Below, in pieces: positions 9,752 through 19,658 of a stretch of 64,000 nucleotides of DNA (within the stretch, counting starts at the first letter, position 1; each line of letters starts with the position of its first letter). The stretch is taken from the NCBI RefSeq assembly GCF_988242995.1, contig NZ_OZ547043.1; one strand, given 5' to 3'. Both the position numbers and the translations under genes were made by a program. The notes below the pieces were generated by a model that saw nothing but the letters and a program-made list of their open reading frames with translations, ran no database searches and was not told the DNA's origin.

Positions 9752-11000
9752 GGGAGTTCTACCGCAGGGGCGGGGAATTCTAAGTGATATCCATCATCGC
9801 ATCCAGTGCGTCCGGTTTATCCCCGCTGACGCGGGGAACACGCTTTTCCCCACGCGTCCAGATCTTCGACTGGCGGTTTATCCCCGCTGGCGCGGGGAAC
9901 ACTCATTAAATTGTTTTTCCCGATCCCAGCTCTGCGGTTTATCCCCGCTGGCGCGGGGAACACCTGGAGCGCAGAAAGTTTGATATCGAAAATGCCGGTT
10001 TATCCCCGCTGGCGCGGGGAACACAGTTAACAACCCGCGCCGAACAAGCCCGACAACGGTTTATCCCCGCTGGCGCGGGGAACACCAGGTTCGTAAAGGT
10101 GAACACGGCACGACGGCCGGTTTATCCCCGCTGGCGCGGGGAACACGCGTCGCCATTCTATTAGCTTTTCCTCATCACCGGTTTATCCCCGCTGGCGCGG
10201 GGAACACCCGACAATCTCCGCCTCCAGTCGGTCGACCTGCGGTTTATCCCCGCTGGCGCGGGGAACACTGTGCCCGACTGCGTGCCGCGTCGAGCGCCTG
10301 CGGTTTATCCCCGCTGGCGCGGGGAACACTTCGCCGCCATCATCCTGTGGTGCCAGTTGACCGGTTTATCCCCGCTGGCGCGGGGAACACATACCGCAGC
10401 AAATTACGGTTCCAGAAACGCGCGGTTTATCCCCGCTGGCGCGGGGAACACTGACACGTTAAACGGTGCGTTGTCGTCGCTGTCGGTTTATCCCCGCTGG
10501 CGCGGGGAACACCCTGCCGCCCCCTTTAGCCCATATGGGGGCGGCGGTTTATCCCCGCTGGCGCGGGGAACACTTCAACATTACGAAACGGGATCACGCC
10601 GCTGACGGTTTATCCCCGCTGGCGCGGGGAACACCGGCTCCGCGTCGACATAAAAGTCCTCGGGATCGGTTTATCCCCGCTGGCGCGGGGAACACATATT
10701 TCGCCCCGTCACGCTGAATCAGCCAGCCGGTTTATCCCCGCTGGCGCGGGGAACACTCGCTTTTAAAGCGCCGGAGGAAAGTAAGCTCCGGTTTATCCCC
10801 GCTGGCGCGGGGAACACTAGCATAAATTACCCGATCAGATCGCGGACATCGGTTTATCCCCGCTGGCGCGGGGAACACTCGATCAAAAATTTACAACCAA
10901 AGGCTTCAACCGGTTTATCCCCGCTGGCGCGGGGAACACTCCCCGGTATCAGAAATAATTCCCTGCTCGATCGGTTTATCCCCGCTGGCGCGGGGAACAC
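9752..11000 (-). CRISPR. CRISPR array, type I-E repeats, 21 repeats and 20 spacers
   Basis: 29 bp repeat CGGTTTATCCCCGCTGGCGCGGGGAACAC with exact 61 bp period, starts at 9813, 9874, ... 10972; all spacers 32 bp. Repeat at 9813 has one mismatch (CTGACGCG). A degenerate terminal repeat sits at 9752-9780 (about 19/29 matches). Leader is on the right, so crRNA is read on the minus strand. Confidence 0.98.
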
Positions 11001-11096
11001 ACTAAGCATACATAACTGTTTTTAAACAAATTTATTCCGCATCAACAATCTACCAACTAAATTAAAACATTTCCTTATTTTTAAAGAACAGATAAC
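11001..11096 (-). promoter_or_regulatory. CRISPR leader (AT-rich) between last repeat and cas2 stop
   Basis: AT-rich 96 bp abutting the newest repeat; contains CAATCTACCAACTAA at 11046-11060, also present at the same offset in the second array's leader. Confidence 0.8.
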
Positions 11097-11390
11097 TTAT
11101 TGATTATCAACAGGAAGAAAAGAAACCAAACGCACCCCATCCAAATCCACCGGAATACGTCTATTTTCACCCCAGGTCTGAAATTCAAAACCCGACTCGG
11201 TATTGGTCGCCCAGGCCATTACCACATTTCCGCAACCTGCCAGTTGAGAGATTTGCTGCCAGATCATCTCCCGAATACGTTTGGACGTATCTCCGACATA
11301 AACACCGGCACGCACTTCCAGGAGCCAGATCTCGAGCCGTCCACGTAAGCGCGGAGAGACATTTTCTGTAACAACGACGACCATACTCAT
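11097..11390 (-). CDS. cas2: CRISPR-associated endoribonuclease Cas2
   Basis: ORF track 97 aa ([11 protein letters not shown]...); position next to the leader. Confidence 0.93.
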
Positions 11391-16867: not shown

Positions 16868-16958
16868 CCTCTCGTAAAAAAGACCATCCTAGGTCGGTTG
16901 TCCATCATTCCATCCTTTTCGGTGTATCAACTATTCAGAGAGCCCTGTCGCAGGCATC

Positions 16959-19658
16959 TCAACCAACCTTGCCAGTCAATCCTTCCATAGCCGAATACCC
17001 GCAACTTTCGTCATCGGTAACTAAAATCACGTTTGCCATCTCCGGATCTTTCCGCTGTTCAATGCACCACTGCCTGAACGCTTCCCCTTCCAGTAAAGAA
17101 AACTCATCCCGATGTTTTTTCCACCAGCTTCGACGCACTCTGACAACGCTCATTTCCCATGCGTGAGCACCGTTGGCATAAGGCTTCACCACACTGGCAA
17201 TACAGGTAGCCAGCCACAGGGAAACAGACTCCTCCGCCAGACGTGTCGACAGCTTTTCCGGAAGGTAATCGTTGATATTGGCGGCATAGCCAGGCCTGAA
17301 GTTCAGCACAAACTTTTTAGCCATTGCGCGATCGCAGTAATATTTGCCCACTTGCTCCTGCTCGCTGCGGGCAAATCCTTCCGGCATTACCACGTCCTCA
17401 CCGTAGACTGATTCAATAAGAAGGCGGGCTGCGTGTGGCATTTGAATAGCGCCTTGCTCACGCAGTACACGCTGCGTCAGCCAGATTCGTCCATGATCGG
17501 GATAGACATATGCACTGTTACGCATGGCACTGCCGAACCATTCGTCACCTGGAGCGTCGTCCCAGACGGGGGCCAGAATCAGCAATTCAGGAGGGGAACG
17601 CTCGTCTTTTCCGTCACGCTTTAACTGACCATTAATATCGCGGATATGCCGCTGTAATCGCCCCGCTCGCTGGATCAGCAAATCAACAGGGGCCAGGTCG
17701 GAAATCATTTCGTCCATATCGCAATCAACGCTCGACTCTAAGACCTGAGTACAAATGAGGACTTTTCCGGCACGCTGTGAGCTATCTTCTTTACCGAAGC
17801 GTGCCAGCGTTTCCGTTTCAATTCGCTGGCGATCGCTAAAAGCAAAGCGGCTATGAAACAGAGAAAGGCTGGAAGCAGGAATGACGCCGCGGGCAAGCAA
17901 CTGACGATAAACCTTAATAGCGTCATCGACAGAATTCCGGATCCAGGCGATGCATTTCCCCTGACTTACTGCCGATTCGATACGCGCAATACATTCTTGT
18001 TCGCTATGAAGCCAACCCACGCTCACGCTACGCTCAACGTCTTTGCGCGTCGCTACCCGGTGTGAATGCACATCGGATTTCGTAACGTGCGTCAGCCAGG
18101 GGTAATCATCCTTTTCCAGGAACGGAGCTTCTTGCTGGCCCTCTGTACCACGCGCAAAGGCAGCAACGAGTTTGTCGCACTGCTGTTGAGATAACGTGGC
18201 AGAAAGCAAAATGACGCTGTTTCCGCCACGCGCCTGCCGCTCGATCAGCCCTTCAAGAATGCATGACATGTAAGCGTCACAGGCATGGATCTCATCAGCC
18301 AGCAGGATTTTGTTACTCAGTCCCAGAAGCCGCAGATTATTATGTTTGAACGGCATCACAGCCATCATCGCCTGATCCAGCGTGCCGACGCCAATTTCAG
18401 CCAGTAGCGCCTTCTTGTTACTGTCGGCAAACCAGGCCGCACATCCCTGACTGAACGTTTGTTCATCCGGTTCTTCTGACCCGACTAAATCACCGGACCA
18501 GAGTGATTCATTAAAGCGGTCCATTAATGTTCGGGCACTGTGTGCCAGCACCAGGCTGGGGCGGGACTCTGGCGAATAGAAAGCAAGCCAGGTTTTGACC
18601 AGTCGATCGTACATGGCATTGGCCGTTGCCATTGTTGGCAGGCCAAAAAACAAACCCTGCGCTTTACCCGCAGCCATCAACCTGTGCGCCAGGATAAGCG
18701 CCGCTTCCGTTTTACCTGCGCCAGTCACATCTTCCAGAATAAATAACTGTGGCCCTGGCTGGCTGATATCCAGATCCAGCACCTTTTGCTGTAACGGTGT
18801 CGGATTCTCAATAAAAGGAAACAGCGTATTAATTCCGGTGAAAGGCGCGACTTTTGCTTTTAGAGGAAAGACGGTTAAGGCGTTTTGAGCCTGAACTAAA
18901 GTTTTCTGCCAGTAACCTTTATTATCCATTGGGTGTGCGACGCGTGGAAAAAATCGCGTTGACGAACCCGTCCAGTCTGCGAGCACGACGGTTGCAGAGA
19001 TATACCAGGAAAGGTGTTTTATAAGTTCAATGCCCTCATCATCATCCCAGAATGCGGGGATCTCTATGAGCGGAAACAGTGGTTTGATTTCAAGAAGAAA
19101 ATCTCGCGCGGCAGCTTTGTCTTCAGGCAGAAAATTATCCAGTTCATCAATACGGTCAGGCGGGCGACCATGATGCCCGGTAGTTATGGGCATCCACATC
19201 GCTATTACACGTGTAAGTTTGCGGGGAGAGAGTGAAGAGGAAGGAAGTAACTCCTGACATTCACTTAAATAATGATGCCACAACCAGTAGCCCAGCGTTG
19301 AATGAGAGATTTTTTCGTAATTTTTTCTAGCACCTTCCGGAACCCTGAGTTTCGGGTGCAGGTAAAGTTGCTGAAATGAGCGGGCAAATTTACCAGTATC
19401 GTGCCAGCACAACAACCAGGCGAAAAATTGAGCCGCCTGTTCCTTGTCAGAAATCTCTAATTGACGAAAATAGTCAGCCAGTCCGAAGCAATTGCTTTTA
19501 ACCATTAAATAGCCCATCGCGGCTACATCCAGCGAATGCCAGCAAAGAAGGTGATAGTCGTCGCCCCCGTCTTTCTCGCCGCGTCGGGTTTTTCCCCAGA
19601 AATCAAAAAAAGTCACAATATTTTTATCCTTCAGTAAACTTAAAGGATATTTACGCAT
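16959..19658 (-). CDS. cas3: Cas3 HD-nuclease/helicase
   Basis: ORF track 899 aa with N-terminal HD region and DEAD/DEAH helicase motifs; only 91 bp upstream of casA. Confidence 0.93.
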   Translation of the reverse strand: MRKYPLSLLKDKNIVTFFDFWGKTRRGEKDGGDDYHLLCWHSLDVAAMGYLMVKSNCFGLADYFRQLEISDKEQAAQFFAWLLCWHDTGKFARSFQQLYLHPKLRVPEGARKNYEKISHSTLGYWLWHHYLSECQELLPSSSLSPRKLTRVIAMWMPITTGHHGRPPDRIDELDNFLPEDKAAARDFLLEIKPLFPLIEIPAFWDDDEGIELIKHLSWYISATVVLADWTGSSTRFFPRVAHPMDNKGYWQKTLVQAQNALTVFPLKAKVAPFTGINTLFPFIENPTPLQQKVLDLDISQPGPQLFILEDVTGAGKTEAALILAHRLMAAGKAQGLFFGLPTMATANAMYDRLVKTWLAFYSPESRPSLVLAHSARTLMDRFNESLWSGDLVGSEEPDEQTFSQGCAAWFADSNKKALLAEIGVGTLDQAMMAVMPFKHNNLRLLGLSNKILLADEIHACDAYMSCILEGLIERQARGGNSVILLSATLSQQQCDKLVAAFARGTEGQQEAPFLEKDDYPWLTHVTKSDVHSHRVATRKDVERSVSVGWLHSEQECIARIESAVSQGKCIAWIRNSVDDAIKVYRQLLARGVIPASSLSLFHSRFAFSDRQRIETETLARFGKEDSSQRAGKVLICTQVLESSVDCDMDEMISDLAPVDLLIQRAGRLQRHIRDINGQLKRDGKDERSPPELLILAPVWDDAPGDEWFGSAMRNSAYVYPDHGRIWLTQRVLREQGAIQMPHAARLLIESVYGEDVVMPEGFARSEQEQVGKYYCDRAMAKKFVLNFRPGYAANINDYLPEKLSTRLAEESVSLWLATCIASVVKPYANGAHAWEMSVVRVRRSWWKKHRDEFSLLEGEAFRQWCIEQRKDPEMANVILVTDDESCGYSAMEGLTGKVG

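Follow-up and report, generated by a model that had tools for sequence, protein, structure and literature searches.

An apparently complete type I-E CRISPR-Cas locus of the cas-E1 variant in Escherichia coli and the targets of its spacers

The window analyzed here, a stretch of 64,000 nucleotides from contig NZ_OZ547043.1 (NCBI RefSeq assembly GCF_988242995.1), contains between positions 9,752 and 19,658 a cluster of CRISPR-associated (cas) genes next to a CRISPR array. We are highly confident that this region is the chromosomal iap-CRISPR2.1-cas-cysH locus of Escherichia coli and that it carries a complete, uninterrupted type I-E system of the cas-E1 variant (also designated cas-EO or "O157-type"). 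The locus is an already known system, the common I-E variant of E. coli, and only its list of spacers is specific to the strain. A second array, CRISPR2.3, lies further along in the window. Spacers are numbered throughout in transcribed orientation, from A1.1 (newest) to A1.20 (oldest) in CRISPR2.1 (array 1) and from A2.1 to A2.8 in CRISPR2.3 (array 2).

The cas operon and its two arrays

To call the Cas proteins, the minus-strand open reading frames (ORFs) were scored against the curated NCBIfam type I-E models and their cut-offs. Eight ORFs scored above these cut-offs over essentially the full length of the models. They are listed below with the arrays and the leader; identities refer to E. 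coli K-12 and to strain MEW (NZ_CM192120.1), the nearest sequenced example found, and protein lengths are in amino acids (aa).

9752..11000, minus strand: CRISPR2.1 array, with 20 spacers (32 bp each) between 21 A-type repeats
9781-9812: A1.20, oldest spacer of array 1
10391-10422: spacer A1.10
10940-10971: A1.1, newest spacer of array 1
11001..11096, minus strand: leader-A, 96 bp, 25% GC, between cas2 and the first repeat
11097..11390, minus strand: cas2e, 97 aa; TIGR01873, 127.9 bits (cut-off 33); 83% identical to K-12 and 99% to MEW; E9 conserved
11387..12310, minus strand: cas1e, 307 aa, GTG start; TIGR03638, 380.9 bits (cut-off 215.6); 84.9% identical to K-12
12307..12957, minus strand: cas6e, 216 aa; TIGR01907, 289.9 bits; 96.3% identical to MEW (a 216-aa protein) and 31% to K-12
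12939..13685, minus strand: cas5e, 248 aa; TIGR01868, 158.2 bits; 99.2% identical to MEW and 36% to K-12
13696..14751, minus strand: cas7e, 351 aa; TIGR01869, 448.1 bits; 99.7% identical to MEW and 31% to K-12
14766..15302, minus strand: cse2/cas11e, 178 aa; TIGR02548, 103.6 bits (cut-off 28.5); 99.4% identical to MEW and 27% to K-12
15299..16861, minus strand: cse1/cas8e, the signature gene of subtype I-E, 520 aa; TIGR02547, 609.1 bits (cut-off 70); 100% identical to MEW and 24.9% to K-12
16959..19658, minus strand: cas3, fused HD nuclease and SF2 helicase, 899 aa; TIGR01596, 84 bits, and TIGR01587, 218 bits; 99.8% identical to MEW and 31% to K-12
36703..37219, minus strand: CRISPR2.3 array, with 8 spacers between 9 T-type repeats; a separate leader starts at 37220

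The first-pass annotation had proposed eight full-length cas genes with operon-like overlaps, and both points hold. Besides the coverage of the models, none of the eight ORFs has an internal stop and all are equal in length to the annotated MEW proteins, while successive genes either overlap (by 4, 4, 19, and 4 bp) or are separated by short gaps (10, 14, and 97 bp, the last between cas3 and cse1). From the leader to cysH (11001-20270, 9,270 bp) the DNA aligns without gaps to MEW (99.47% identity) and to strain EcPF15 (99.14%), and no frameshift was found. For two genes the mechanical ORF started too far upstream: that of cas6e (12307-13095, 262 aa) includes a leading segment before the TIGR01907 match, which begins at residue 47, and that of cse1 (522 aa) begins upstream of the likely true start, homology giving 15299-16861 as listed. 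A first search with the whole locus had returned an identity of just 95-96%, as a divergent or non-E. coli operon might give; this candidate was rejected, as it is the spacers that lower the figure: taken by itself, the operon is 99.5% identical to MEW.

The catalytic residues are also in place. Cas1e has E141, H208, D218, and D221, and H30 of Cas6e aligns to the catalytic H20 of K-12. In Cas3, H86, D87, and K90 align to K-12 H74, D75, and K78, the Walker A lysine K316 to K320, S486 and T488 to S483 and T485, and the DEIH box (D455-E456-I457-H458) to the DEVH box of K-12 (D452-H455). The best PDB match of Cse1 was K-12 CasA (E value of 1.8e-15, N-terminal part only), and Cas3 matched 4q2c and 4qqw, the Cas3 proteins of Thermobaculum and Thermobifida; no solved structure of a cas-E1 Cse1 or Cas3 was found among the PDB matches. 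Strain EcPF15 (NZ_CP054227.1) has a cas operon 99.1% identical to that of the window, yet the annotation gives cas1e there as a pseudogene, interrupted by an internal stop; the strain illustrates how a closely related locus can lose adaptation and still appear intact in other respects.

Array 1 is built on the repeat CGGTTTATCCCCGCTGGCGCGGGGAACAC (GTGTTCCCCGCGCCAGCGGGGATAAACCG in its minus-strand form), found in 20 copies from 9813 to 11000 with an exact period of 61 bp, when none are expected by chance. Nineteen of these copies are perfect and one (9813-9841) has a single change in the loop; the terminal repeat (9752-9780) is degenerate (18/29 positions identical) and in register. The count made at first reading, 21 repeats and 20 uniform 32-bp spacers, is therefore right as 20 canonical repeats plus a degenerate one. 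All the repeats are of the A type, ending in AACAC, and the RNA of the repeat makes a hairpin of 7 bp closed by a tetraloop (-15.1 kcal/mol, z = -3.2); Rfam at gathering thresholds reported no CRISPR repeat family and sok (see below) as its sole hit. Since the leader adjoins cas2, the array is read on the minus strand and the spacer at 10940-10971 is the leader-proximal one, the same spacer that the first-pass annotation had taken as the newest. Over the 110 nt upstream of the first repeat, MEW, EcPF15, and ETEC4067 have a 100% identical sequence, which is unlike the CRISPR1 leader of K-12. That array and leader are competent for acquisition, as had also been claimed, is indirectly supported: the leader is identical to that of cas-E1 strains with different leader-proximal spacers, and Cas1 keeps its catalytic residues.

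In MEW (extracted locus 10471-10836) and in the array of plasmid pIOMTU792 (extracted locus 5789-6000), the newest repeats are of the loop variant GCGTCAGC and the older ones are GCGCCAGC. In the window, the GTCA loop variant is confined to the oldest canonical repeat, at 9813-9841. Such a distribution is consistent with the copying of each new repeat from the leader-proximal one.

The repeats of array 2 (GAGTTCCCC..., T-type, AACTC) comprise eight canonical copies and a degenerate terminal one, in agreement with the eight spacers counted at first reading, and A- and T-type repeats differ at a single position, outside the hairpin. No cas genes accompany CRISPR2.3, which relies on the cas operon in trans. 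At their leader-distal ends, the oldest spacers of both arrays, A1.20 and A2.8 (36732-36763), have 16 of 18 nt in common around a core GGATATCACT, which suggests that CRISPR2.1 and CRISPR2.3 descend from a single ancestral array end. MEW carries the same eight CRISPR2.3 spacers (A2.2 with one mismatch), plus a duplicate of the newest and one extra spacer.

Variant, host, and relatives

Assignment to type I-E follows from the Cse1/Cse2 signature, the HD-helicase Cas3, the co-oriented cluster of backbone and adaptation genes, the array with its repeat and leader, and the AWG motif described below. Within the subtype, the E1 cluster is the primary cas-E variant of E. coli, K-12 belongs to the minor E2 group, and the cas-E genes of Salmonella and Escherichia albertii fall in the same E1 cluster (Almendros 2014, PMC3903273). 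The cas-EO variant is linked to CRISPR-A repeats (AACAC) and leader-A (Diez-Villasenor 2013, PMC3737337). The operon of the window agrees with this variant in its E1-cluster Cascade and Cas3, in its A-type CRISPR2.1 with leader-A, and in its higher GC content (51.6% versus 44.8% in the K-12 operon, the published means being 53.5% for E1 and 45.6% for E2). Membership in the K-12 group (cas-E2 or cas-EK) is contradicted by the A-type repeats, the different leader, and the K-12-specific equivalog models, whose cut-offs were missed both by Cse1 (NF007247, 103.9 bits against 576) and by Cas3 (NF007248, 420.5 against 569).

The host is E. coli. The flanking iap and cysH are 99% identical to those of K-12, and the cysHIJ DNA is 99.7% identical to MEW (98-99.7% to E. 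coli genomes). The repeat GTGTTCCCCGCGCCAGCGGGGATAAACCG is that of Salmonella too; a difference from Salmonella enterica lies in the flanking housekeeping genes, which are those of E. coli (cysHIJ). At least 80% of the 10.2-kb locus is held by 2396 of the 5426 complete E. coli genomes (ca. 44%).

With K-12, the window shares the chromosomal site, the gene order, the 29-nt repeat with its hairpin, the 61-bp unit, the conserved terminal spacer, and a well-conserved adaptation module (Cas1 85% and Cas2 83% identical), and all the catalytic residues align. In contrast, the six interference proteins are only 25-36% identical, so that the different strain background suspected at first reading from the number of spacers proved to be a stronger difference than claimed. 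Array 1 has A-type repeats where K-12 has T-type repeats and a different leader, and the gap between cas3 and cse1 is 97 bp rather than 414 bp, which means that the K-12 layout of Pcas, H-NS, and LeuO is not simply transferable.

MEW has the same iap-CRISPR2.1-cas-hok-cysH position, the same eight genes with the same lengths and proteins 96-100% identical, A-type repeats, an identical leader-A, and an AWG motif with ATG as the commonest form. It differs in spacer content only, with six other newer spacers. The iap-CRISPR-cas2...cas3-hok-cysH synteny of the window recurs in MEW, EcPF15, and K-12. Part of a similar locus was found on the IncHI2 conjugative plasmid pIOMTU792 (NZ_LC542972.1, 242057-248055), where casB, cas7e, cas5e, cas6e, cas1e, cas2e, a 10-spacer array, and iap stand beside ISEcp1-blaCTX-M-15; the segment looks like chromosomal DNA mobilized with the resistance gene.

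Upstream of cas3, between the operon and cysH, the following features were found.

19659..20270, minus strand: AT-rich region upstream of cas3, 40% GC
19853-20005, minus strand: hok, intact, 50 aa, 195 bp upstream of the cas3 start
19990-20147, minus strand: sok RNA, full-length match to Rfam RF01794, 111.7 bits

In MEW and EcPF15, the corresponding site has an annotated Hok/Gef gene, whereas in K-12 only sokX is annotated there. Presumably, 19659..20270 harbors the cas3 promoter and would be the site of any silencing.

Spacer targets and the history of the arrays

Targets were identified for 16 of the 28 spacers of both arrays, and ca. 0.001 chance matches with ≤7 mismatches would be expected for any spacer in a 40-kb target. 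They are given below by target, with the number of mismatches and the flanking motif.

A1.2: P2-family prophage lineage, 0 mismatches, AAG
A1.3: P2-family lineage, 3 mismatches, ACG
A1.5: P2-family lineage, 0 mismatches in N1420 (ACG) and 6 in 40EC (ATG)
A1.7: P2-family lineage, 0 mismatches, ATG in LZSFT34 and ACG in 40EC
A1.9: P2-family lineage, 0 mismatches, ATG
A1.10: P2-family lineage, 0 mismatches, ATG
A2.1: P2-family lineage, 0 mismatches, ATG
A2.2: P2-family lineage, 2 mismatches, ATG
A1.4: STEC379/384 prophage type, 0 mismatches, AAG
A1.11: STEC379/384 type, terL, 0 mismatches, ATG
A1.19: STEC379/384 type, 4 mismatches, ATG
A2.5: STEC379/384 type, 4 mismatches, AAA; the weakest assignment
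A2.6: classic P2-like prophages, 0 mismatches in GF43 (AAG) and 1 in phage vB_EcoM-569R10 (AGG)
A1.14: classic P2-like, 3 mismatches, ATG
A1.18: classic P2-like, 5 mismatches, ATG
A1.15: plasmids, 32/32 on ca. 333 of 72,556 plasmids, ATG

Half of these spacers (eight) target a single P2-family prophage lineage, represented in N1420, 40EC, LZSFT34, and Z1323PEC0010, of ca. 33 kb and with a gpA-type replication nickase, P2-family capsid genes, and a contractile tail. Cronobacter phage ESSI-2 and Escherichia phage ESSI2_ev129 are distant relatives of this lineage (17-18% of an 8-kb probe aligned, at ca. 70-72% identity). In array 2, the two newest spacers, A2.1 and A2.2, target this same lineage with the ATG motif, as do six of array 1 with the motifs listed. 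Four more spacers match a prophage type found in STEC379/384, with lambdoid early genes and contractile-tail genes, and three match classic P2-like prophages (e.g., in ST131 and GF43). The matching prophage sequences were also considered as mis-annotated CRISPR arrays, and this was rejected, as the loci read had ordinary phage gene contexts. The plasmids matched by A1.15 are mostly from Klebsiella, Escherichia, and Salmonella, and the gene targeted, annotated as a zincin-like metallopeptidase/DUF1738 and falling in a PHROG anti-restriction family (E value of 3e-88), is a predicted ArdC-like gene. Among the PLSDB matches, those to records of 4.8-4.9 Mb (H258, H259, and H261) are presumed to be to CRISPR spacers in chromosome-sized records mislabelled as plasmids.

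The first-pass annotation had pointed to an adjacent AWG motif and to self-targeting as the checks to make. On the spacer-identical strand, 14 of the 16 protospacers carry AWG (11 ATG and 3 AAG; binomial p of ca. 1e-19). The motif CAT, which is ATG in spacer orientation, is the commonest for spacers of leader-A arrays (PMC3737337), and the 11 ATG versus 3 AAG agree with this published preference. For self-targets, no match with ≤7 mismatches was found elsewhere within the 64-kb window. The targets of E. coli spacers are overwhelmingly prophages, and only rarely phages that have been sequenced (Dion et al. 2024), and the lineage of the window likewise appears to have sampled mainly temperate phages resident as prophages in other E. 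coli.

Perfect protospacers without AWG all carry ACG: A1.5 in N1420, A1.7 in 40EC, one MEW spacer, and one spacer of EC21Z-048/YC21-F17. Possible explanations are escape through an ATG-to-ACG change, a motif tolerated during uptake, and chance. Around the A1.7 target, 40EC and LZSFT34 differ at 48 of 3032 positions, so that a single difference in the motif carries no significance.

In its older half, array 1 is made up of a mosaic of spacers common to other arrays: A1.11, A1.13, A1.15, A1.16, and A1.20 are found in MEW; A1.11, A1.12, A1.13, A1.16, and A1.20 in the pIOMTU792 array; and A1.14, A1.16, A1.19, and A1.20 in ETEC4067. Vertical descent with internal deletions usually gives such a pattern. 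A1.10 is found in many otherwise unrelated arrays (e.g., EC21Z-048 and E24377A) but not in MEW, which implies independent acquisition or recombination between arrays. Closer to the leader, A1.2 to A1.9 occur in no other array among the 5426 complete genomes, and the sole relative of A1.1 is a twin with two mismatches located mid-array in YC21-F17, reflecting either a hot protospacer acquired independently or array recombination. Because strain-specific spacers at the leader end match extant prophages perfectly and with correct motifs, adaptation seems to have operated in this lineage since its split from MEW.

Activity of the locus and alternative readings

Gene integrity, catalytic residues, the repeat hairpin, the canonical leader, the polarized history of the array, and the targets with their motifs can all be read from the DNA itself, and from the well-studied I-E pathway we infer how they would work together. 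The leader would drive minus-strand transcription of the array, and Cas6e would cleave each repeat hairpin to give 61-nt CRISPR RNAs (crRNAs). Cse1, Cse2, Cas7, Cas5, and Cas6e would assemble around the crRNA as Cascade, which would bind double-stranded DNA beside an AWG motif and recruit Cas3 to nick and unwind the target. Cas1-Cas2 would insert new 32-bp spacers (33 bp with the motif-derived G) at the leader-repeat junction of both arrays.

No observation speaks against the identification, which does have limits. The mechanism is taken over in its details from K-12, and the Cascade and Cas3 of that strain are as distant as described above. In the leader and upstream of cse1 and cas3, a simple sigma-70 scan gave nothing convincing as a promoter (5 sites versus 9.2 expected by chance, none of them in the leader). 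The K-12 system is silenced and, according to the literature, activity in natural isolates is undemonstrated. Four of the target assignments rest on 4-6 mismatches (A1.18, A1.19, A2.5, and A1.5 in 40EC), and the AAA flank of A2.5 is non-consensus. Finally, 12 of the 28 spacers, the newest included, are without an identified target. For A1.1, there was none in phages, plasmids, non-CRISPR E. coli sequence, IMG/VR, GTDB representative genomes, or JGI metagenomes. A1.6 and A1.8 gave no matches, including in exact IMG/VR scans that let every sixth base vary, and the target search was also without a match for A1.17, A1.20, A2.3, A2.4, and A2.8. A1.12, A1.13, and A1.16 matched only CRISPR arrays in the 60 records sampled of 161 matching, and the one match of A2.7 was weak (27/28) and fell in an intergenic hairpin of phage SRT8.

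The most serious alternative, which in our judgment falls just short of an even chance, is that the locus is intact but transcriptionally silent, repressed by H-NS, with the arrays as a slowly changing historical record. It fits the published view of E. coli, in which H-NS represses the K-12 system, activity in natural isolates has yet to be demonstrated, and arrays are stable over the long term. Both the region upstream of cas3 (40% GC) and the leader (25% GC) are AT-rich and probably the kind of DNA that H-NS binds, and other strains share the older half of array 1 and the whole of array 2. However, of the ten spacers of array 1 closest to the leader, nine are in no array among the 5426 complete genomes (A1.1 having only its two-mismatch twin), several of them match extant prophages perfectly with the correct motif, and their acquisition would have taken place since the split from MEW, a strain with 99.5-99.7% DNA identity over the two stretches compared. 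All the catalytic residues are kept, as opposed to the decay seen in EcPF15 with its cas1 pseudogene.

How the newest spacers were acquired is a related question. The run at the leader end could be the footprint of primed adaptation, in which an older, partly matching spacer (A1.10, A2.1, or A2.2) triggered Cas3-dependent uptake from a variant phage; we consider this unlikely. The P2-family lineage is targeted by six of the ten newest spacers of array 1 and by none of the ten oldest (Fisher p = 0.005), and by the two newest of array 2. The older A1.10, A1.9, A1.7, and A2.1 are perfect in phages of the 40EC type, the newer ones match the N1420 type (A1.5 and A1.2 perfectly, A1.3 with 3 mismatches), and in the latter type the older spacers show at least 5 mismatches or an ACG flank. 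The targets of A1.2, A1.3, and A2.1 lie within ca. 800 bp, and in a second prophage, of the STEC379/384 type, the old A1.19 (4 mismatches) and the new A1.4 (perfect) are 547 bp apart on one strand. Against this, the strand bias (6 to 2) is not significant, the comparison covered two reference prophages only, and A1.10 itself is common to unrelated arrays. Moreover, unrelated E. coli arrays carry spacers against the same three prophage families, and frequent independent encounters explain the pattern equally well. The wider proposal, that the run may record natural primed adaptation together with phage escape in wild cas-E1 E. coli, draws on the shift from 40EC to N1420, on the 547 bp between A1.19 and A1.4, and on ACG replacing ATG at several perfect protospacers, and we hold it to be improbable, if anything slightly more so.

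It is very improbable that what is present is the remnant of a CRISPR-Cas system, in decay or partly without function, with pseudogenes or with an array and a cas module that do not belong together, as the A-type repeats of the cas-linked array beside the T-type repeats of the second, the mechanical ORF lengths of cas6e and cse1 unlike those of K-12, and the 95-96% identity of the first whole-locus search might suggest: that identity is due to differing spacers (the operon without the array being 99.5% identical and gap-free), the two repeat types differ at one position outside the hairpin, the same pairing of an A-type CRISPR2.1 with a T-type CRISPR2.3 is found in MEW, correct insertion of spacers into arrays with different leaders has been published (PMC3737337), one and the same phage, with one motif, has given spacers to both arrays, and full-length model matches, the absence of internal stops, and the gap-free alignment refute pseudogenes.

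The preferred reading thus remains that of an intact cas-E1 locus, and as such it brings nothing new to CRISPR biology other than a clean example of this variant. To our knowledge, little biochemistry has been done on cas-E1, as the field works on K-12. The spacer record fits published findings, both in the targeting of prophages and in the predominance of ATG for leader-A arrays. Spacer A1.15, a perfect match with the correct motif to an anti-restriction gene that occurs on hundreds of plasmids from clinical Klebsiella, E. coli, and Salmonella, is a natural test case for plasmid interference. If the reading of primed adaptation and escape were true, the supposedly silent I-E system of E. coli would be active in nature and would exert selection on prophages.

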